DNA of 10,363 bases from Deinococcaceae bacterium. GTDB taxonomy: Bacteria; Deinococcota; Deinococci; Deinococcales; Trueperaceae. Of this stretch, positions 1 through 10,363 are shown one piece after another (position 1 is the stretch's first letter; every line of letters starts with the position of its first letter). Below the pieces are notes generated by a model. The model worked only from the letters and a program-made list of their open reading frames with translations, searched no databases and was not told the origin of the DNA. The stretch spans positions 1 through 10,363 of the forward strand of contig JBDZWC010000105.1 in the NCBI GenBank assembly GCA_040256005.1, given 5' to 3'. The position numbers were made by a program, and so were the translations under genes.

Positions 1-1686
1 GAGCACACACCAGTCGAACGCGCCACTACCCGCCATCGCCTCCTGCGTATCGGCGTTCCTAGCCGCGTCGAGCGCGTTCCAGAGGCGACTGCAGATCGTC
101 AGGTCGTAGTAGGCCACGAGGAGGTGCGCGTAGCGTCCGCCCCGCAGAGCTTCCATGCGCATACCGAGCGTGTCCGGTACGCCAAGTAGACCCGAGAGTC
201 CCTCGCGGTCACGCCTGATGCTCAGCCCGGTCATCACAACCGCGGCAGCTCCGAGGTTCAGGCCAGTCCGGAGCAGGAAGGTCAGGAAGCTGCCCAGGAC
301 CGGCTTCGCCTCCAAACCGGCCGAGCCGATCTGGAAGACGTCGGGCACGCTGAAGAAGAGCTGCACCCGCAGCAGCGATGAGCCGACGAAGCCGAGAACC
401 GAACGCGCGTTCACCTGAGCGTCGTCGGGAGCGAACGTGCTTGGCCAGGCCGACCCTGCCGCTAGCAATGTGCCCCATGACGCGAGCAGGAAGCCGGTAG
501 CCAACAGCGCCGCCCAACCGAGTACGCCGCTGCGCAGACGTTCCAGCGATACGAACGGCAAGACACCGCGCTCGATCATCAGCTCGAAGGACGCGCGCGG
601 CGAGATCAGCAGCCACGTCAGCAGCAGCATGCACGCGAGACCTGCTGCGAACGCGATGATTGGCGGGCCCAGCGCGATCACCACCGCCACCGCCACCCCG
701 CTGACCGACAAGGCCGCGATGACTACCGGGCGCAGGCGCGCCTTACTCTCGGACTGCTGCTCCGCGCCGTTCGATAGCTCTTCTAGCGTCTCCTCCAGAG
801 AGTCGCCCCGCGGATCGCCATGTGTGATTCGCATCCTAAGGTAGGGAATCGCCCAATCCCTCAAAGCGAGTAGCGACCGCGTCGTACCGACGGAGTCGTC
901 ACCAGCCGAGCGCCTTCTCAGCAGAACCTCGACAGTGGCGTTTACATCGGCTGTCAACTCGCGGCCCAGATGACCGGCCAGCACGGCGTCGCCTGAGGCT
1001 GCGGCCCGCTCGAGTCGAGTTATCGAATCATCACCTCGACCCAAGCCGTGCGCCCGGTAGAAGGCCGCTCGCATCAGAGTAAGGACGATGCGAACGAAAC
1101 CGATACTGAGAATCAGGCGTGTGAAGAAGACCAGCGACCTGCCGGCGAGGCTGGGCGCATCGCCCGCGAGGCCGAGGTCCAATACGTCGAACAGGTCGAG
1201 GAACAATTCGGTGAACAGCAGGCTGTCGATGGCGTAACGCCACGCCTCCGACCATGACGAGCCGCTCAATAGGCCCGGATAGAACTGCATCACCTTCCGG
1301 AAGAGAACGGCTTGGGCGCACAGGTGGAAGGGCAGGCTGAACGCCGAGATCGCGACAGGAAGATAGGTCACGACCGCAGGACTATCGCGTTTGAGTATGC
1401 CGAACGAGTCACTGGACCTGAGTAGTCGCGCTGCCAACTCTGGCCATACGACCAACCAAGAGAGCAGCGCGAACCCCACAAGCTGCAGGACGAACGACCA
1501 GGCCCCGATTGGGAGCAAGCCGAGGCAGGCCAGGCCGAGCGACGCACCGCCGATCGCCAACCAGAGCCACGTCGGCGTGAGTTGGTAGGCCTCCAGTAGC
1601 GCCCGTAGCTCGACCCTCAGCCCATGCAGGATCGATCCGAGCGTGACCCGCCCGGTACCGCGCCCCGAAGCACTTGGTTCGTTCAA
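1..1686 (-). CDS. Large multi-pass membrane protein with a tandem ~281-aa internal duplication; partial, 3' end lies beyond window position 1
   Basis: Manual translation of the minus frame (codons ending at multiples of 3) shows no stop from beyond 1743 down to 1: MNEPSASGRGTGRVTLGSILHGLRVELRALLEAYQLTPTWLWLAIGGASLGLACLGLLPIGAWSFVLQLVGFALLSWLVVWP...GSGAFDWCVL. It has many hydrophobic helices. Preferred start is TTG at 1686, with GGGGG 7 nt upstream and a TATAGT -10-like box at 1723-1718; ATG 1743 is an alternative. Absent from the ORF track because no stop codon lies in the window. Confidence 0.85.
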   Translation of the reverse strand, partial: MNEPSASGRGTGRVTLGSILHGLRVELRALLEAYQLTPTWLWLAIGGASLGLACLGLLPIGAWSFVLQLVGFALLSWLVVWPELAARLLRSSDSFGILKRDSPAVVTYLPVAISAFSLPFHLCAQAVLFRKVMQFYPGLLSGSSWSEAWRYAIDSLLFTELFLDLFDVLDLGLAGDAPSLAGRSLVFFTRLILSIGFVRIVLTLMRAAFYRAHGLGRGDDSITRLERAAASGDAVLAGHLGRELTADVNATVEVLLRRRSAGDDSVGTTRSLLALRDWAIPYLRMRITHGDPRGDSLEETLEELSNGAEQQSESKARLRPVVIAALSVSGVAVAVVIALGPPIIAFAAGLACMLLLTWLLISPRASFELMIERGVLPFVSLERLRSGVLGWAALLATGFLLASWGTLLAAGSAWPSTFAPDDAQVNARSVLGFVGSSLLRVQLFFSVPDVFQIGSAGLEAKPVLGSFLTFLLRTGLNLGAAAVVMTGLSIRRDREGLSGLLGVPDTLGMRMEALRGGRYAHLLVAYYDLTICSRLWNALDAARNADTQEAMAGSGAFDWCVL

Positions 1687-1777
1687 AGCTGCGCCCCCAA
1701 ATTGGTGACTTCGCGACACTATACGAGGCTCTTCTGGTCGCATCGCCGGGAGAGTGTGGTCCGCTACTCTGGAGCCG

Positions 1778-2269
1778 ATGAACGGGGGCCACCGAGATGT
1801 CAACGCCATCCCAGCCATGACGAAACCGACGTTCGTTCCCGCTGACTTCGAACCGCCCACGGTGCTCGTCACTGAACACTTCCGCCTCGAACCGCTGGGC
1901 CCGCAGCACAACGAGTCCGACCACAAGGCGTGGACATCGAGCATCGAGCACATCAGGTCCACTCCCGGCTATCCGGACGGACGGTGGCCGCCAGAGGGCG
2001 GCATGACGCTCGAGGAGAACCGGTCCGACCTGGAGCGCCACGCTGCGGACTTCGTCGCCAGGAAGGGTTTCACCTTCACCGTGTTGGACCCGGATGGGGG
2101 AGACGTGATCGGTTGCGTTTACATGTACCCGAGCAAGGATCCTCAGTACGACGTACATGTCCAGTCGTGGGTAAGTGCTGATCGGGCGCATCTGGACGGG
2201 CAGTTAGCGGAAACGGTGTCCGCTTGGATCAAGGCGGCGTGGCCGTGGGAGCGCTTGCTCTACAGATAG
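1778..2269 (+). CDS. GNAT-fold N-acetyltransferase-like protein (RimJ/RimL-like)
   Basis: FVPADFEPP..L.TEHFRLEPLGPQHNESDHKAWTSSIEHIR..PG, and F..RKGFTFTVLDP....VIGCVYMYP...V.VQSWV, match a widespread GNAT-like family as I recall it. Start is either ATG 1778 (TACTCT 7 nt upstream) or ATG 1817 (MTKPTFVP). Confidence 0.8.
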   Translation: MNGGHRDVNAIPAMTKPTFVPADFEPPTVLVTEHFRLEPLGPQHNESDHKAWTSSIEHIRSTPGYPDGRWPPEGGMTLEENRSDLERHAADFVARKGFTFTVLDPDGGDVIGCVYMYPSKDPQYDVHVQSWVSADRAHLDGQLAETVSAWIKAAWPWERLLYR

Positions 2270-2284
2270 GGAAGAGGCCCGGCG

Positions 2285-2498
2285 CTACGTCGTGAGAGCC
2301 AATGCCGCTTCGTTGTCCACTTCCGTGCCCACCCAAGCCTCGGTGCAGCCGAGTCGGTTGCCGTGCACGAGCATGAACTCCATCAAACGCCGGCCGATTC
2401 CCAGCCGCCTATGCGTGCTGGCTACGCCGAGCTCGTTGCTGAAAATCTGAAGCGGCTTTCCGGGTGACCAGGTAGATCGGAACTCGCCCCAAGGCCAT
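2285..2498 (-). pseudogene. Degenerate GNAT acetyltransferase, C-terminal half
   Basis: Minus strand reads KPLQIFSNELGVASTHRRLGIGRRLMEFMLVHGNRLGCTEAWVGTEVDNEAALAL then stop, containing GNAT motif A (R-R-x-G-I-G) and N-x-x-A. The upstream 'IYL-HP(D)KP' segment is broken by frameshifts (cac ccg ga- aag ccg) and the N-terminal half is missing. Confidence 0.75.
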
Positions 2499-3715
2499 CA
2501 GCTCAGGTGCCCGGTGACGACCGCGTCAAGCCTCTCGAGAACCTGCCTGGAGCCTTCGACCGCACCGAACTCCTCAACATGCTTGCGCCTCTCGTCCTCC
2601 GACGCGTAGCGGGTCGTCAGCGTCACGCGGGTCGCGCTGTCCTCGGGTTCCAGCGTGAACACCGCACGGTACGGCTCCAGGCCGAGGCTTTCGGAGCCGA
2701 GCTGCGTGAACACGATTCGCACGAAGGGCTCGACGCTCTCGAACTCGTAGACGTTGTCGTAGACGGTGCCATCAGGGCCGCGCATGGCCACGACGAAGCG
2801 GCCGCCGTAACGGATGTCCAGCTCATGGACGTCGCTCGTGAAACCTTCCGGACCCCACCATCTGGCGATCTTGTCGCGCTCCGTCCAAGCCTCCCAGATA
2901 CTTTGAACTGGCGCTTCGATGATCCTCTCCGTGGTGAGGCGCAGTGGATCCGAGGAGACAGCCGCTTGCCGCAGCAGTTCGAGCTGGCCCACGTACGTCA
3001 TGGCCTCGGCGAGGGGTCCCTGTAGGAGGCGCGTTGGTGTGTGAGGAGGCTTCCACCGGACGCGGCCGACTTCCTGGGCAAGGTCGAAGATGACGTCCCG
3101 CAGGGCCGCTGCTTCCTCGTCCAACGTCGGCAGTGGGTCTGCGACGTATGTCTCACCAACAAGATCGGCGCGCGCGGCGCCGATCACGCTACGCATGAGT
3201 CGCACCAATCGCTTGGGCGTGCGGGACTCCTGGCCGACCGTGAACCCAGCGAAGCCGGGCGGGGCACTGCCCAGAGCCTCGAGCGAACGGTACGCGAGGT
3301 TCCCGAGGTACCCCTTCAGGAGCTCAAGGTCAGCGGCCGTTGGCTGCGTATCCGATGCCGCCTCCATGATCTCGAGTCGGTTCCCGAAAGGGTCGTGCAC
3401 GTAGAAGCGGCGAACGCCTGGGTAGCGATCGTCCCACTCGACCTCGGAGCCGTACGATCGAAGTAGCACGGCCAACCAGTCCAGGTCCCGGTAGAGCAGC
3501 GCCGGATGTGCCTTGCGGGCAGGTGCGAAGGCGCGCTCTACGCCTAGGTGGAGCTCTACATCACCCGATTTGAACCAGGCTCCGCCGTTCGCCACCAGCA
3601 TGGCCGGCTTCGGAACCTCGGAGAGGCCGAGGACGCCCGCGTAGAACTCGCGCGCTCGGTCCTCCCCGCCTTCGGGCATGGCCAGCTGCACGTGATCGAG
3701 GGCAATCGGTTGCAT
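2498..3715 (-). CDS. Three-domain fusion: VOC/glyoxalase + DinB-like helical domain + SRPBCC (AHSA1/START-like)
   Basis: N-terminus LDHVQLAMP...AREFYAGVLGL.E..KP...ELHLG...KAHPAL...RFYVHDPFGNRLEI is VOC. Middle LAYR...AP..FA.F...RTP...LLQGPLAEAMTYVGQL.LLR is DinB-like. C-terminus ERIIEAPVQSIWEAWTE...WWGPEGF...D.R.GG.F...M.GPDG is SRPBCC. Start placed at ATG 3715 (MQPIALDH); 405 aa. Confidence 0.85.
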   Translation of the reverse strand: MQPIALDHVQLAMPEGGEDRAREFYAGVLGLSEVPKPAMLVANGGAWFKSGDVELHLGVERAFAPARKAHPALLYRDLDWLAVLLRSYGSEVEWDDRYPGVRRFYVHDPFGNRLEIMEAASDTQPTAADLELLKGYLGNLAYRSLEALGSAPPGFAGFTVGQESRTPKRLVRLMRSVIGAARADLVGETYVADPLPTLDEEAAALRDVIFDLAQEVGRVRWKPPHTPTRLLQGPLAEAMTYVGQLELLRQAAVSSDPLRLTTERIIEAPVQSIWEAWTERDKIARWWGPEGFTSDVHELDIRYGGRFVVAMRGPDGTVYDNVYEFESVEPFVRIVFTQLGSESLGLEPYRAVFTLEPEDSATRVTLTTRYASEDERRKHVEEFGAVEGSRQVLERLDAVVTGHLS

Positions 3716-3868
3716 GGCTTGGTACACGATACCTGGAACCCTGCTGTTGCTCCGGACCAGCCGAAGCGCTACAGGCCGTACCACCTGGCTCCGACGCTAT
3801 TGGGAGCGGCGTTCCTGCAGTGACTTGGCTACGCGTGTGACCCGTCTAGCCGAATCGGGCCCTCTTCA

Positions 3869-4312
3869 TCAACCATGCTCCAACGAGTTCCCGACCCGCT
3901 TAAGCCCGGCCTTCGAGGCGAGTTCGTTGAGGAACCTTTCTCGATCCGCGGGGGAGATCATCACCGTGCCGGTCAGGCCGGGACCGGACACGATGCTCAG
4001 CCTGTCCATAGACAGCGCCGGCGAGGCCAAGGGGTTGCGAGTCGGTTCGACCTTCGTGATGTCAGCCAGTGGGATGCGGGTTCGGACCAGGCCGAATCTC
4101 ACGAGCAAGTGCTTGTCGTTCAGGCCGTAACGCGTGGGGTACACCAGTCCGAAGAGGACGCCTAGGACGAGAACGGATGCCACCACGGCGCCAACGAGGT
4201 CGTCGTTGGAGCCTGACGTCAGCGCCACGATCCAAGCCACGACGACAGCAACGGGCATCGCCCAGATGAGAACCGCCAGCCACCAATCCACTTTCGATGG
4301 GTACCAACTCAT
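3869..4312 (-). CDS. Membrane protein with bacterial PH domain (bPH_4-like)
   Basis: MSWYPSKVDWWL, two TM helices, then TRY.L....L.VRFGL....IPL.DI.KV.PT.NPLASPALS.DRL.I and ISP.DRE.F. GGAGG lies 10 nt upstream of ATG 4312, so the longer ORF-track start at 4552 is unlikely. Confidence 0.85.
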   Translation of the reverse strand: MSWYPSKVDWWLAVLIWAMPVAVVVAWIVALTSGSNDDLVGAVVASVLVLGVLFGLVYPTRYGLNDKHLLVRFGLVRTRIPLADITKVEPTRNPLASPALSMDRLSIVSGPGLTGTVMISPADRERFLNELASKAGLKRVGNSLEHG

Positions 4313-4517
4313 TCGGTTGGACCTCCATTCTGAGAGTACGGTACTCGGTGACGGTTCCCCACATTCGCAGCCTCTTGACGCCCGCCTTGGTGAGCACGTA
4401 CGCGGACAAGACGGGCGCGTCGGCGAGAATGGAGGGCGGCCCACTAAGCACTGTCGCGTAGACGGACTGCAGGTCGGGCTTATCATCGCTTCGAAAGGTA
4501 TCAACGAGGGGACACCG

Positions 4518-5822
4518 ATGATCTGGCGCGTGGTCTTGAGTTTCGCCGTCATAGCTCTCTTGGCTCGCGTCCACGCGGCCGGTCAAGAGGCGTGCGTAGG
4601 GGGTCCTGGCCGACACGCGCAAAGCGTCGGCGGCGAGGTAAAGGGTGAGAACGACCTCTCGATTCGCGTGGCTAATGGCCTGAGTCTGGTCCTGCAACGC
4701 TCTTCACACGGCTGGCGGGTATCGGTTCTGGAGCGGGAGTCCAACGACCTGGTACCGGCCGGACCTTCCGGTCCTGACATCAAGCCGCGGGACATAGAGG
4801 GGTGGCACTTCCGGAACGCCGACAACACGGGCCCGAACTCCGGCGAGATCAACGCGCCCCAGCTCGTGCGCCGCTTCTCGTTCGTCCCTCCTGGTGAAAC
4901 GCATGGCACTACCGGCACCGTTGCCCTCGTCATCTCCGAGTTCGGACTGGCGAACCTTGCGCCGGGACAGCGGGCTTCGATGGTCGACCTGCGGTTCGAT
5001 GCCTGCCTGACCTGGCCGCTGGCGGAGGCCGAGGTCCCGGTTGAGCCTGGAGCCGCCAATCTAGAGTTCCTGCCCGAGGAGATCGAGGTGATGCGTGCCT
5101 GCGGCGTCAGCGAAGAGTACTCTCTCGTGGCCAGGTTCCCACTGCGCCTGTTAGCCGGCGACTTGATAGTCCTCGAGGCAGCTAATGGCTCGCTTCGCAG
5201 CCTTCACTGGGATGGCGCAGGGTTCGTCGTCCACCATCACCGAGGGAGTCGCCTACCGACTCAGGACGAGTCCGTCGTTCTCTTATACGTGATAGCGGCC
5301 AAGGGCGCGGAGTGTGGTCTGTTGCGCCCGTGGGAGGCTGCCAACGTACAGGCGATGGTCGACCAGGAGACCCTCGGTTGGGAAGATTCGAGGTCGCGAT
5401 CCGTGGAGGCCGCGTCTCGCAATAGGCTTGCCGAGACGCTCTGCGACGCCTCGTTCCTAACCGCCTGGATCGAAGGCGCCAGGGCCGGCATGGAGGCCGA
5501 GTACCTCTCGTTGCATCTGGTCGTCTACCGGACGCTCCTGTCGATGCCGGCCCCGCCCGCGTGGTTCAGCGACACGGTCACTCGCACGAACGCCGAGGCC
5601 GACATCGCGGTGATAAGCGAGAAACTGACAGCTCTGGAGGCGTCGGGTGCCCGTCCCGACGGCGGTGGCCCGTGGACCGAGTTCGTCTCGACCACCAGTG
5701 CCGCGGTGGAGCGGTTCGCGCCCCTACTCGACGAAGGCGAAGCGCCACCGGACGTCGCGTTCCTGCTTCCGCGCTCCGTAGTCATCGCCGAGCTGTGGTT
5801 GGCCGACAACGAGCTGGACTAG
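4518..5822 (+). CDS. Secreted hypothetical protein, probably multi-domain
   Basis: GAGGGG RBS precedes ATG 4518. The N-terminus MIWRVVLSFAVIALLARVHA|AG looks like a Sec signal peptide. Contains a conserved-looking PRDIEGWHFRNADNTGPN.G.INAPQ motif. The ORF-track extension to 4134 overlaps the PH gene in antisense and is rejected. Confidence 0.7.
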   Translation: MIWRVVLSFAVIALLARVHAAGQEACVGGPGRHAQSVGGEVKGENDLSIRVANGLSLVLQRSSHGWRVSVLERESNDLVPAGPSGPDIKPRDIEGWHFRNADNTGPNSGEINAPQLVRRFSFVPPGETHGTTGTVALVISEFGLANLAPGQRASMVDLRFDACLTWPLAEAEVPVEPGAANLEFLPEEIEVMRACGVSEEYSLVARFPLRLLAGDLIVLEAANGSLRSLHWDGAGFVVHHHRGSRLPTQDESVVLLYVIAAKGAECGLLRPWEAANVQAMVDQETLGWEDSRSRSVEAASRNRLAETLCDASFLTAWIEGARAGMEAEYLSLHLVVYRTLLSMPAPPAWFSDTVTRTNAEADIAVISEKLTALEASGARPDGGGPWTEFVSTTSAAVERFAPLLDEGEAPPDVAFLLPRSVVIAELWLADNELD

Positions 5823-5847
5823 CCGGACTCCCCGCCCACCGTGGCCG

Positions 5848-6486
5848 TCACTCGAACACGACGGTCTCTTGGCCGACCTCGAGCTGCCCGTACTTGAGTC
5901 CGCCCACTCGTTCGTAGACCGTCAAAAGCGCGCCTGTGGCGGTGGCCTGCGTCTCGACGAGACGAAAACCACGTGGCATGGTCCCCGAGCCGAACAGTTT
6001 CTTGCCTGCGCCAAGCGTGACAGGGAACTGCCAGATGCGCAGGGTGTCTACCAGGTCTTGAGCCAGGAGAGTCTGCAGTAGATCGCTACTGCCGTGCACC
6101 TGGATCTCGCCGCCGTCTTGTTCCTTCAACGCCCTGACTGCGGCGGGGACGTCGCCTTGGAGCAGGCTGGAGTTCTGCCATTCGACGGTTTTGAGGGTAC
6201 GTGAAGCGACGTGCTTGGGCCTGGTGTTGAGTGCGACGGCGGACTGGTCCTGCGGGTCGGTCGAGTTGGGCCACGACGCTGCGAAGATCTCGTACGTCTT
6301 GCGCCCTAGCAGGAACGCGCCGGCCCGTAAGGTCCACGCCGTCATGCTGTTGACGAAGTCATCGTCCGCGAACGGGACGAGCCAGCCGCCGTGATCGAAC
6401 CCGCCCTCACGGTCCTCGTCGGGCGCGCCGGGTCCCTGCATGACCCCGTCTAACGTCGTGAAGGCGCCGACCACTAGTCTTCGCAT
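5848..6486 (-). CDS. Dihydrofolate reductase family protein (RibD C-terminal domain)
   Basis: MRRLVVGAFTTLDGVMQGPG.P.ED..GGF.HGGW, LLGRKTYEIFA..WP, LN..PK.VASRTL, I.VHGS..L.QTLL..DLVD, PV.LG.GKKLF. Confidence 0.93.
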   Translation of the reverse strand: MRRLVVGAFTTLDGVMQGPGAPDEDREGGFDHGGWLVPFADDDFVNSMTAWTLRAGAFLLGRKTYEIFAASWPNSTDPQDQSAVALNTRPKHVASRTLKTVEWQNSSLLQGDVPAAVRALKEQDGGEIQVHGSSDLLQTLLAQDLVDTLRIWQFPVTLGAGKKLFGSGTMPRGFRLVETQATATGALLTVYERVGGLKYGQLEVGQETVVFE

Positions 6487-6492
6487 GCGTCC

Positions 6493-6498
6493 ACTCTA
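6493..6498 (-). promoter_or_regulatory. -10 box (TAGAGT) of a probable leaderless transcript for the DHFR-family gene
   Basis: Minus strand reads TAGAGT-ggacgc-ATG: TANNNT 6 nt before the start codon, leaving no room for a leader. Confidence 0.5.
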
Positions 6499-6571
6499 AG
6501 CAAGTGGCTATGAGGCGCTGGTGGTGAACAGCTACCCGAGAGTCCGCTAGCATCGCGGCAATGGAGCCAAT

Positions 6572-7906
6572 GTGGACGCGCTGCTCGACTCATCGGCTGT
6601 AGCCATCGCGCGCGCAATACGCTCACGTGAGGTGACCTCGCGCGAGGTCACGCTCGCCTTCCTAAAGCGCATCCGCGAGCGAAATCCGGCGATCAACGCT
6701 GCCGTGCAGATAGCTAATGAGCGGGCACTCGCCGAGGCAGCGAAGGTGGACGCGGCATTGGCTCGCGGTGAACCAGAAAGGCCGTTCCTCGGCGTGCCAA
6801 TCACCGTCAAGGACGTCTTCGACACCGAGGGCATCGTCACGGCCGTCGGCCTGACGGAGCGCCGCGAGTTCGTACCTGATTGTGACGCGGTCGCCGTTGC
6901 GCGTTTGCGCGCCGCGGGCGCAATACTCATCGCGAAGTCCAACTGCCCAGAAGGCGGCGCCGGTGGCGCCACGGACAACCCGGTTTACGGCCGCACCAAG
7001 AACCCGTACGACCTCGCGCGCACCCCGGGCGGCAGCAGCGGTGGCGAAGCGGCGCTACTCGGCGCTGGTTGCTCGCCGCTGGGTCTCGGAAGCGACTCGG
7101 GCGGCAGCATCCGGCTGCCGGCTCACTACTGCGGCGTGGCGGGGCTGAAGCCGACCGCAGGCCGCGTTCCCAATACGGGTGCCTACGACCATCCGGGCGG
7201 GCTAAGCGACGTCAGAACTCAGATCGGCCCCATGTCCCGCCACGTGGAGGATCTGTACCCGGCGCTCAAGGTGATAGCGGGCCCCGACTGGCACGACTCG
7301 GGCGTGGTCGACATGCCGCTGTTGGAGCCAGGAGACGTTTCCATCGCCGGTCTACGCGTCGCGTACATCGAGGACGACGGTGTCTCCCGGCCGACCAAAG
7401 AGACCCGCGAGACGGTCGAAGCGACTGCTCGGCTCCTGGCCGAGGCTGGCGCAGCCGTCGAGCGGGCTATGCCAGACCTCGCCGACGTATGGCCCATAAC
7501 CAGAGCGTTCTGGCAGCTGGACGATGCGAGCGGGGAAGAGGTAGGCGAGCTGTATACGCGCTGGGACGGGTTCCGTAGCCGAATGCTCGGTTTCATGCGG
7601 GGATACGACGCGATCTTGTGTCCGGTCGACCGGCATCCGGCGCCTCTGCGCGGGGTCGACGACCCTGAGCGGTTCTCTTACACCCTTGCGTACAGCCTCA
7701 CAGGCTGGCCCTGTGCCGTTGCTAGAGCCGGAACCTCGCCTGGGAACCTGCCTATCGGGATTCAGGTCGTTGCGCGCCCGTGGAGGGAAGACGTCGCCTT
7801 GGCGGTTGCTCAGTGCATAGAAGTGTCGCGTGATGGCTGGCGCCCCCCAGCGTTCATCAGTTCCGCCGCTAGTTCGAGGGGTACTGGCCATACGTCGGCT
7901 GCCTGA
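6572..7906 (+). CDS. Amidase-signature family amidase
   Basis: GVPITVKD (catalytic Lys), PGGSSGGEAA, LGSDSGGSIRLPAHYCGVAGLKPT (Ser-cisSer-Lys triad), C-terminal LPIGIQVVARPWREDVAL. GTG start with GGAG 5 nt upstream. Confidence 0.95.
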   Translation: MDALLDSSAVAIARAIRSREVTSREVTLAFLKRIRERNPAINAAVQIANERALAEAAKVDAALARGEPERPFLGVPITVKDVFDTEGIVTAVGLTERREFVPDCDAVAVARLRAAGAILIAKSNCPEGGAGGATDNPVYGRTKNPYDLARTPGGSSGGEAALLGAGCSPLGLGSDSGGSIRLPAHYCGVAGLKPTAGRVPNTGAYDHPGGLSDVRTQIGPMSRHVEDLYPALKVIAGPDWHDSGVVDMPLLEPGDVSIAGLRVAYIEDDGVSRPTKETRETVEATARLLAEAGAAVERAMPDLADVWPITRAFWQLDDASGEEVGELYTRWDGFRSRMLGFMRGYDAILCPVDRHPAPLRGVDDPERFSYTLAYSLTGWPCAVARAGTSPGNLPIGIQVVARPWREDVALAVAQCIEVSRDGWRPPAFISSAASSRGTGHTSAA

Positions 7907-8068
7907 TCGGGGTAGGGATTCTCGGCACCTCGGCTAATCCCCGGACGCGCGTGTCAGGCTCACAGCCGCCGTTCCCGTGCCTCGCGATATGGCAAGTGTA
8001 TCGGACATTGTGCAAGCGTCGTACTCGTAAGGTGGTCGATAAAGCCGGCCCTCTCAAGGCTGCGACGG

Positions 8069-8074
8069 TATGAT
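8069..8074 (+). promoter_or_regulatory. Candidate -10 box (TATGAT) for the TIR gene
   Basis: 5/6 match to TATAAT about 40 nt upstream of the TTG start; no recognisable -35. Confidence 0.35.
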
Positions 8075-8113
8075 GGTGCCGGTAGTGCTGTCGGTATATT
8101 GGAGGGATACAGG

Positions 8114-8809
8114 TTGGCTAGATGCACAGCACCAGTACGGGGCCATCGAACTGCAAGCGGAGCAGCAGACTGTCCAGCGTGCGGCGGCCGATACAGAGGC
8201 TATAACGGGTACAGATCGTACTCCTCCCAGTCCTACTACCCGGTCGGAGCCAGCGGAGGTAGCTTGGGCGGCCGAGGCGGGTCTGGAAGCTCCACAAGGC
8301 CGAGGTGGTCGCGACCCGGCTCCTCCGTCGCATACACGTCTGCCGAAGTTAAGGCCCTTACGCCGGTCCGCGTCAGCGTCGAAAAGCAACTGCACCTGCC
8401 CGATCGACGGGACATTTTTCTTTGCCACGCGTGGGACGACCGGCGAGGGGTCGCGAAGGAGCTGCACGACCTACTCGAATCGCTCGGAGTTTCGGTGTGG
8501 TTCAGCGAGAAGGATGTCGTCCTAGGCATGCCGTTGCTTCGCGAGATCGACAGAGGGCTCGCGAGGTCACGAGTCGGAATTGTTCTCGTGACCCCGGCGC
8601 TATTGCTGAGGCTACGTGGCGAGGGAATTGTGGACAAGGAGCTTTCCGCGCTTCTAGCTCGCGATCTCCTAGTCCCTATCGTGCATGACACTACTTACGA
8701 GGCACTTCGTGAAGTCAGTCCACTTCTTGGATCGCGAAGCGGCCTAAATACTGCCGAGGATACGTTGACTAATGTCGCGGGCAAGCTCGCCGAGTTGATA
8801 GCTGTCTAG
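8114..8809 (+). CDS. TIR-domain protein (TIR_2-like) with N-terminal C-x6-H-x8-C-x2-C motif and low-complexity linker
   Basis: RDIFLCHAWDDR...A.EL...LES.GV.VWF.E.D...G..L.REID.GL..SR.GIVLVTP.L is the TIR fold, with the putative catalytic Glu in DKELSAL (codon 8639-8641). Start TTG 8114 has GGAGGG 7 nt upstream; 231 aa. Confidence 0.9.
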   Translation: MARCTAPVRGHRTASGAADCPACGGRYRGYNGYRSYSSQSYYPVGASGGSLGGRGGSGSSTRPRWSRPGSSVAYTSAEVKALTPVRVSVEKQLHLPDRRDIFLCHAWDDRRGVAKELHDLLESLGVSVWFSEKDVVLGMPLLREIDRGLARSRVGIVLVTPALLLRLRGEGIVDKELSALLARDLLVPIVHDTTYEALREVSPLLGSRSGLNTAEDTLTNVAGKLAELIAV

Positions 8810-9037: not shown

Positions 9038-10126
9038 TCACTCCGAATCGATTCCCAAACTCCACTCCCGTACCTCATCGGTATCCTGCGCCGCAGCCAT
9101 ATAGATCTCAGTACTACTCATACTTGCGTGGCGCAGATGGTCACGAACTTTCCGCAGGTCGCTGGTCTGCCGCGCATAGTGCACTCCAGCGAAGTGCCGC
9201 AACCCATGCACGCCCTTGGTAAAGCGCTCAAAGGGCAACCCACGAGCAGACAGCGCCAGGTTCCAAAGCTTCTCGAGTCGCGTATACACACGCGACCGAG
9301 AACGCGTCTCCAACACGAACGGCGCATCTTCGCCGGGTAGGCGAGAGGGCACATCTTGTGAACGGGCAGCCAGGTTCCGTCGCAGCTCCTCGCTCATCGT
9401 CACGGACGCGGTCTTGCCGCCTTTGCCAAACCTCACGGTCAGCCGGCCGCCCCGCAGGTCCACGTCGTCCCAGGTGAGCGACAGCATCTCGGAGACCCGC
9501 AAGCCGGCGTGGGCGCCCAGGAGCAGGATGAGCCTGTCGTCCCAGTCGCGGCTCACGCTGGCCATCCACTCGAGTTCCTCGAGCGTGTACGCCTTCGCCC
9601 TGGCGCGCTCCACTGGCTTCTCGGTGAGCTTGGGTAGGGTGACCTCGGCGAACGGGTCGGCGGTCGAGACCCCGGTCCACCTGAGCGCCTCGTAGAACGC
9701 CCTGGCGGCTGCCACGCGCTGCCGAACCGAAGCCGGCGTGAGGGACTTGGTCGGTTGGCGGCCCTGGCGCCTTTGAGCCTCGACGTGTCGATCCGACGGG
9801 TCGGCCTCGCGCCGCGGGTCGCGCAGCTGCCTCACGTACGCCTCGGCGTCGGCGCGCGTGGGCCGTAGCAGGTCGACGCCGCGCCAAGCCTCCAGGAGTA
9901 GCGTGACGCCCTTGCGGTACGAGGCGATCGTGTTGGCCGAGCGCTGGCGAGCCTCCAGGAACGCCCGCGTGACCAGCCACAGCGAATCATGGTCGCGTTC
10001 AGAGACGGCCTTGGCCGCGAAGCGCCGGCGCTCGGCGTCGCTGAAGCCGATGAAGCGATCCACGAGGGCCAGCTCGGCCTGCGGCGTGTAGCGGACGAGG
10101 GAAGCTGACCTACGAGGCATGGCCAC
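9038..10126 (-). CDS. Tyrosine recombinase/integrase (XerC/D-like)
   Basis: Catalytic set intact: GLRVSE (R), GKGGK (K), HGLRH (HxxR), HLRHAS (H), STEIY (Y). N-terminal SANTIASYR...AARAFY matches the core-binding/SAM-like domain. Start is GTG 10126 or ATG 10120. Confidence 0.93.
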   Translation of the reverse strand: MAMPRRSASLVRYTPQAELALVDRFIGFSDAERRRFAAKAVSERDHDSLWLVTRAFLEARQRSANTIASYRKGVTLLLEAWRGVDLLRPTRADAEAYVRQLRDPRREADPSDRHVEAQRRQGRQPTKSLTPASVRQRVAAARAFYEALRWTGVSTADPFAEVTLPKLTEKPVERARAKAYTLEELEWMASVSRDWDDRLILLLGAHAGLRVSEMLSLTWDDVDLRGGRLTVRFGKGGKTASVTMSEELRRNLAARSQDVPSRLPGEDAPFVLETRSRSRVYTRLEKLWNLALSARGLPFERFTKGVHGLRHFAGVHYARQTSDLRKVRDHLRHASMSSTEIYMAAAQDTDEVREWSLGIDSE

Positions 10127-10253
10127 TCAGTTTCACGCGCAGAGACCTCCAAGAGAACAGGTGCCGGGAAGACAGCCCAGCAATAAGTCGCAGACCACGT
10201 AACGAGATACCCGAGAGACCCTCACAGCACCGGTCTCAACGAGCATATCAACC

Positions 10254-10281
10254 AGAGAACATAATGCTGCTTATGTTTTCA
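10254..10281. other. dif-like tyrosine-recombinase core site (11-6-11)
   Basis: AGAGAACATAA-TGCTGC-TTATGTTTTCA. The arms are inverted repeats (9/11 match) and share CATAA-N6-TTATGTT with E. coli dif (GGTGCGCATAA-TGTATA-TTATGTTAAAT). It is an AT-rich patch just upstream of the recombinase gene. Confidence 0.8.
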
Positions 10282-10363
10282 CACACCCGGGGGAGAGGTC
10301 GATCGGGATCTCAGCTGAAGCTGCGACGCGTCATCGCGCCCCACTTGCCACGCTTGCTCCTGA

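Follow-up and report, generated by a model that had tools for sequence, protein, structure and literature searches.

A tyrosine recombinase gene beside a candidate dif site at the predicted chromosome terminus of a Deinococcaceae bacterium

A recombinase gene and its neighbouring palindrome

The window, that is, the whole 10,363-nucleotide stretch that we analysed, comes from a 3.1-Mb, 250-contig assembly (G000, 96.8% complete) and carries a tyrosine recombinase gene, a near-symmetric 28-bp sequence and the end of a glycosyltransferase-2 (GT2) gene, with a variable region downstream of the recombinase (Table 1). An earlier note, made from the DNA letters alone, had described an 11-6-11 site about 128 bp 5' of an intact Xer-like gene. 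The site is present as described: it reads AGAGAACATAA-TGCTGC-TTATGTTTTCA, is complementary at 9 of the 11 arm positions and lies 127 nt upstream of the first GTG (10126) of a 362-codon open reading frame with all six catalytic residues. The count of site copies that the note had proposed gave one copy in the whole assembly, with no second match at six or fewer arm mismatches; the chance expectation for the window was 0.02 matches (at most two mismatches), and the whole genome holds four TAA-N6-TTA cores, this one included. The CATAA-N6-TTATGTT sequence that the note gave as the conserved dif core held only in its inner part, as TAA-N6-TTA is shared across the recombinase family described below whereas CATAA-N6-TTATG is specific to clade A, the recombinase's own clade. 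A G-rich, KOPS-like motif similar to that in the flank, and likewise directed away, follows the site in all ten aligned clade-A sites. The letters between the site and the gene include what we take, by its consensus, to be an extended -10 box; such a box would possibly set the 28-bp site over the -35 region, and a sigma-70 scan for a full promoter returned 0 sites. Since the site overlaps the likely promoter region, it is plausible that the recombinase gene is autorepressed through it, as the note had suggested.

Table 1 Features of the window and their positions
Feature	Positions	Strand	Remarks
Variable terminus region, downstream of recombinase	1-8809	.	GNAT, AHSA1 fusion, bPH, RibD_C, amidase, TIR_2
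Tyrosine recombinase gene, 362 aa, clade A of a Deinococcota-specific Xer-like family	9038-10126	-	ORF and profile match
Possible extended -10 box, directly inside the site	10242-10250	-	Presumed from consensus; similar letters in G001 and G009
Predicted chromosomal dif	10254-10281	.	Arm 10254-10264, 6-bp centre 10265-10270, arm 10271-10281
G-rich flank GGGGGAGAGG, KOPS-like, directed away from site	10289-10298	+	Sequence
GT2 gene, 3' end	10311-10363	-	Continues on contig C69

The 362-amino-acid protein matches Phage_integrase (PF00589) above the cut-off and has the R-K-H-R-H/W-Y set and the core-binding and catalytic domains of a tyrosine recombinase. In an alignment of 27 sequences, R210, H307, R310 and Y342 were invariant and K235 and H333 nearly so. 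Its predicted structure (pLDDT 91) resembles XerA, XerH and other recombinases at low identity. Scores against models of named subfamilies were far below the cut-offs, at 40.5 versus 267 for XerS (NF003462), 83.5 versus 335 and 67.5 versus 330 for XerC and XerD (TIGR02224 and TIGR02225), 84.8 versus 220 for archaeal XerA (NF040815) and 46 versus 265 for IntI, and the XerH model was absent among the model matches. The note had also called for a check for separate xerC and xerD genes. The genome contains three PF00589 matches, none of which comes near the XerC, XerD, XerS or XerA cut-offs, and no XerC, XerD or XerS was found by profile in this 96.8% complete assembly. A clade-B paralog is likewise far below the XerC and XerD cut-offs, and the third recombinase (contig C53) is phage-like, split into two open reading frames and unrelated to the 28-bp site. 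FtsK is encoded in the genome; a complex prediction for the recombinase catalytic domain with the FtsK C-terminal domain scored 0.14, against a mark of 0.32.

A recombinase family and its sites across Deinococcota

With a profile of 27 members, we found the family in 125 of 151 Deinococcota genomes that are at least 95% complete; 25 of the 26 genomes without a match came from one genus. Matches in a plasmid database all fell on Deinococcus replicons (50 of 50). A quick tree of 57 proteins supported each of the clades A, B and C and placed A as sister to the B group, not to C. Thermus phages Lalka8, Lalka27a and Lalka27b encode a member of the family with 35% identity. In genus g29, 25 of 27 genomes gave no family match at E < 1e-40, and to judge from this pattern the genus may resolve dimers by a different enzyme.

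The note had proposed a search for a shared motif upstream of homologs, and the palindrome proved to be conserved there: a TAA-N6-TTA palindrome lay no more than 2 kb upstream of the gene at 54 of the 89 family loci kept, as against 2 of 89 downstream (the scan took in 110 loci, and 21 with short flanks were set aside; some loci were fetched twice and related loci are non-independent). The arm sequences track the protein clade across the family. Clade-A arms read ACATAA in seven of ten rows, the others being two rows without upstream DNA and one distant row without a site. Clade-B arms are of the TGATAA type, mostly TTTGATAA, and were found within 6 kb in 23 of 46 cases. Clade-C arms mostly read CTGATAA, with a site in 19 of 19 cases, 16 of them beside smc, birA or GT2. 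Deinococcus-type chromosomes carry the arms GTTGATAA/TTATCATC, and another family carries CCCGTTAA (six of six). Among 89 genomes of genus g27, 47 showed the Deinococcus-type site pattern, a few of these matches being weak, and 42 were without the commonest pattern. Among named Deinococcus plasmids and chromids, two of six have a site right upstream and one further weak candidate lies 1.4 kb off; no clear site was detected in G030 and G059. In D. radiodurans, a weak palindrome (6/11) lies 31 nt upstream of DR_RS15985 on MP1 (L162, NC_000958.1) and is a candidate megaplasmid resolution site, and no palindrome was found within 1.5 kb of the chromosome II homolog.

The usual distance between site and gene is 30-130 nt, with the site upstream. 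This spacing, together with the half-site that is kept at the promoter in clade B (many genomes) and in clade A of G006, would also fit a palindrome that serves solely as an autoregulatory operator of the recombinase gene and not as a recombination site. Against such a role, some full sites persist 1-5.5 kb from the gene, the terminal site of G007 has no adjacent gene, and site position tracks the terminus and the motif flip described below; we regard an operator-only palindrome as very unlikely. The note had further considered that the motif might be a transcription-factor operator found before many unrelated genes. This was rejected, because the motif is single-copy in the assembly and tracks the recombinase clades.

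Position at the predicted replication terminus

The last 55 nt of the window are identical to the first 55 nt of contig C69, which contains GT2, regulators, a birA-like gene, smc, a MerR-type hspR-like regulator and dnaJ. This overlap anchors the recombinase and its site in a core terminus locus. On the other side, region 1-8809 varies among relatives, and synteny leads on to contig C177 (hisS, aspS). The smc operon marks the terminus in closed relatives: in G021, G030 and G033, the family gene or site lies opposite dnaA, and smc and the family recombinase gene are 1-25 kb apart. More broadly, the site or gene lies at 0.474-0.546 of the chromosome from dnaA in 23 of 24 positions computed for chromosomes with dnaA and the site or gene on one large contig (G014, G035, G089 and three weaker second matches were left out). 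Positional outliers were a second, gene-less site copy at 0.246 in G275 and a family gene with site at about 0.31 in G151.

To place the site relative to polar motifs in G000, we used a 158-kb scaffold of 14 contigs ordered on synteny with G021 and G005. On this scaffold, 24 copies of GGGNAGGG are directed toward the site and 8 away from it (binomial p 0.007), and the orientation flips within a 3-kb interval, between 106,470 and 109,441, that includes the site at 108,799. A looser motif, GGGNAGR, which was picked post hoc with the data already seen, gave 145 versus 72 and peaked 559 nt from the site. GGGGNAGA, second in rank among the real motifs when G021 and G033 alone were used, gave 25 versus 5. 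The GC-skew switch, at which the note had proposed to look for the site, gave a mixed picture: the skew maximum of G021 lies about 1 kb from its own site, that of the G000 scaffold is weak and about 19 kb off, and in G033 both the skew and motif peaks lie about 31-32 kb from the site. Motif polarity was not found on the terminal contig of G007 (29 versus 25).

The locus thus combines a gene linked to a near-symmetric, single-copy site, a 96.8% complete assembly without a XerC/XerD pair and a terminus position with an inversion of FtsK-orienting motifs (on a synteny-ordered scaffold with weak skew), as is characteristic of single-recombinase Xer/dif systems. Terminus synteny, the motif polarity flip, the presence of sites upstream of homologs, the single copy and the lack of XerC/XerD together support the first of two alternatives offered in the note, a one-recombinase chromosome dimer-resolution locus. 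We put the probability that the 28-bp palindrome is the working chromosomal dif of the adjacent clade-A recombinase at roughly 0.85, and this recombinase is very probably the sole resolvase acting on it.

The second alternative in the note was the att or res site of a mobile element, in which case the recombinase would be the integrase or resolvase of an island inserted after GT2 and the true dif would lie elsewhere. Such an island would agree with a recombinase gene that is patchy in the genus and found at two loci, with its GC3 of 0.81 against a genome median of 0.91, with the variable genes downstream of it and with the 35%-identical relative in three Thermus phages. However, a second core-site copy and mobility genes, as a prophage or ICE integrase would have, were not found: the 28-bp site has one copy, and the scan of window ORFs gave no match to phage or transfer families (the variable region has its left end on a different contig). 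In addition, motif polarity flips at the site, neither the clade-C pair nor any other candidate dif was found on chromosome contigs, the recombinase gene tree agrees with the smc tree, and none of four DNA runs revealed a joint at the site, the best of them also giving an even depth along the window, which is weak evidence as it covers contigs only. We therefore consider an island unlikely.

If the palindrome is the chromosomal dif, one recombinase monomer would bind each arm after replication, two sites would pair within a homotetramer and strands would be exchanged through Tyr342 across the 6-bp centre, turning a chromosome dimer into two monomers. The asymmetric centre would set the direction, and the homotetramer would resolve directly repeated sites on the dimer. 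FtsK would be led to the site by GGGNAGR motifs that invert there and would probably time the reaction; its involvement is probable, as judged from motif polarity only. These steps are modelled on established tyrosine-recombinase chemistry, and we infer binding, recombination, FtsK dependence and autorepression from sequence.

The note had compared the locus with streptococcal XerS/difSL, and the layout bears this out: in streptococci and lactococci, according to the available part of PMC5357621, one recombinase of about 360 residues is encoded immediately beside the terminus site in genomes with FtsK, as here. Membership in XerS does not follow, given the score of 40.5 versus 267 and a site of 28 bp with a 6-bp centre rather than the 31 bp with an 11-bp centre given for difSL in the same text. 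Unlike XerS/difSL, several paralogous pairs with different arms coexist here, one per replicon. XerH/difH of Helicobacter and Campylobacter, as described in that part of PMC5357621, is also a single recombinase near its own site, and the fold is related (5jjv, E 2e-8; profile E 3e-26), but identity to 5jjv is 16%, the arms are unrelated to the difH given there and the phylum is different. Archaeal XerA (4a8e, 5hxy) gave the best PDB sequence and fold matches and also acts as a single recombinase on a 28-bp site; the model score (84.8 versus 220), an identity of about 22%, the encoded FtsK and the polar motifs set the present system apart. With XerC/XerD-dif of E. coli and most bacteria, it shares the 11-6-11 layout, the TAA-N6-TTA inner core, the terminus position and the GGGNAGGG flip, but it has near-symmetric arms and no XerC or XerD above the cut-off. 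Cre/loxP of phage P1, a replicon-borne single recombinase that resolves dimers at an adjacent symmetric site (13-8-13), offers a similar arrangement of enzyme and site, but identity in fold matches is 12% and Cre/loxP is not a chromosomal terminus system. On scores and sequence, the family is a phylum-specific single-Xer variant that would work like XerS/difSL yet stands outside XerS/difSL, XerC/D, XerH and XerA.

Gene-site pairs on chromosome and chromid

The clade-B paralog of G000, which is 44% identical to the clade-A recombinase of the window, lies on contig C132 with a full site of its own 1.7 kb upstream and a half-site at the gene start. C132 carries a Rep3 initiator and a second parAB, with a skew minimum next to both, and the only NAD-dependent ligase gene (ligA) of the genome, which together identify it as a chromid. 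Along C132, the motif count peaks locally at site B and falls to a local low at the origin. C132 further carries polA, polX and an imuB/LexA-like cluster. Site B (44840) lies only about 12 kb from the origin region (about 55-59 kb: rep, iterons, parAB), so the replication arms would be very unequal. The clade-B half-site at the gene start (G000:C132:43126; L054, L055, L060, L063, L067, L069) is followed by TGCGA-N6-TCAC, which we take to resemble a CRP-family box; this element may link the chromid resolvase to a CRP-like regulator.

With both genes in one genome, the clade-A and clade-B proteins could be a XerC/XerD-like pair acting on one or both sites. The genes co-occur in the genus, A and B are sister clades, and in five congeners the two genes are 3-6 kb apart. 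However, each has its own near-symmetric site with different arms, G016 carries A without B, and in G000 the B gene belongs to a different replicon, which has a Rep3 initiator and a parAB of its own and on which the motif count has a local maximum at site B. A joint role of A and B therefore seems scarcely probable, and we favour separate pairs of one recombinase and one site.

We compared the slot after smc and GT2 across the genus, leaving out G002 and G004, in which it is unreadable. It holds a clade-C gene and site in G003, G005, G006, G008, G010 and the outgroups G018, G020 and G021, and site A with a clade-A gene in G000, G001 and G011. G009 has site A and the same upstream leader until the contig ends, and G007 has site A without a recombinase gene. 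Of the 12 genomes of the genus, the five with the clade-C gene are the only ones that have site C, which is absent from the other seven, G000 included; the clade-C pair was not found in G000, although a 96.8% complete assembly could miss one. On the smc tree, C is ancestral at the slot, G000, G001, G009, G011 and G004 form one clade, and G002, G003, G005, G006 and G007 form its sister clade. The clade-A pair of the window thus stands in a slot where outgroups and five congeners carry a clade-C pair, consistent with a replacement. What the window newly adds is this replacement of one dimer-resolution pair by another. In other Trueperaceae, the terminal slot holds clade A in G016 (98% complete), where this gene, with its site and 15 kb from smc, is the sole family member, a sister clade of B in G024 and G025, and a distant clade in G032.

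Each genome of the sister clade (G002, G003, G005, G006 and G007) has a clade-A gene on the chromid just upstream of gene B, and between site B and gene B wherever the flank is assembled. In all five of these congeners, protein B lacks the GKGxK catalytic-lysine loop, which is kept in 46 of 46 other B loci (the pattern matched 37, and the remaining nine rows also read GKGxK). Because the five loop-less proteins descend from one ancestor, the loop may have been lost only once. The arms of site B are altered in G002, G005 and G006; the site is intact in G007 and unassembled in G003. In a DNA tree of clade A, the chromid copies fall on one side (support 73/85), and the clade-A gene tree is congruent with that of smc. 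We considered horizontal transfer of clade A into the lineage of G000 from the chromid-bearing congeners, as nesting was suggested by a quick protein tree, and dropped it because the nesting was not seen in the careful DNA tree. In the course of evolution, the clade-A pair has clearly changed replicon, either from the chromid to the chromosome or the other way round.

The phylum holds several non-overlapping gene-site pairs, typically one per replicon. We think it more probable than not, as one joint reading that assumes dimer resolution, that each replicon of Deinococcota has its own recombinase with a private palindrome and that these pairs behave as interchangeable cartridges, on chromosome or chromid. 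A newcomer would settle beside or replace the resident, and the ousted resident would then be lost (C) or kept as a catalytically dead DNA binder (B, in five congeners). By the same reading, the terminal site of G007 would have to rely on a chromid-encoded enzyme, and the genus would capture stages of such a swap. In Vibrio, a single XerCD acts at the dif of either chromosome (cited in the available text of 10.1101/2022.07.15.500248); here, each replicon would instead bring its own enzyme.

No description of the family's sites was found in the literature searched, most subscription papers lying outside the search. The available portion of PMC13342612 (2026) states that no canonical dif is identifiable in D. 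radiodurans and lists both chromosomes as 'not detected', and that of 10.1101/2022.07.15.500248 describes six putative recombinases of this species along with putative dif sites that are not specified, the cognate recombinases being left untested. PMC5357621, which defines XerS/difSL, XerH and XerA, PMC3025954, and PMC8138268, which argues for vertical Xer evolution, do not mention Deinococcus or Thermus in the parts available. The combination of gene and palindrome points to specific candidate sites in Trueperaceae and in roughly half of the Deinococcus-type genomes that were searched, and the question of dimer resolution in Deinococcota thereby becomes testable at the bench. The swap also bears on whether Xer systems are inherited only vertically, as the available text of PMC8138268 has it, or can be replaced by modules of secondary replicons. 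With their different symmetric 28-bp targets, the many compact natural recombinases could be a source of orthogonal Cre-like tools, and the same set could yield a map of arm-recognition rules.

Several smaller features concern the sites and their flanks. A second perfect copy of site C lies on a separate contig of G003 (G003:C45:1638-1657). In G006 (L060:5013 and 9599), the full A site is inverted relative to the gene and 4.6 kb away from it; two subtilase genes separate them, and a half-site adjoins the gene. This arrangement resembles a scar left by an insertion or inversion at the site. Variable genes are concentrated in the terminus flank, and toxin-antitoxin pairs (PIN with MazE or Phd) adjoin terminal sites at L059:10560-11182 (G005), L070:3708-4343 (G016) and L074:8901-9571 (G021). 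Within the window, the open reading frame at 2501-3727 has a C-terminal AHSA1 domain and an N terminus that looks glyoxalase-like without a Pfam match, and 8099-8809, just downstream of the recombinase gene, encodes a possibly defence-related TIR_2-domain protein with a low GC3 of 0.63.
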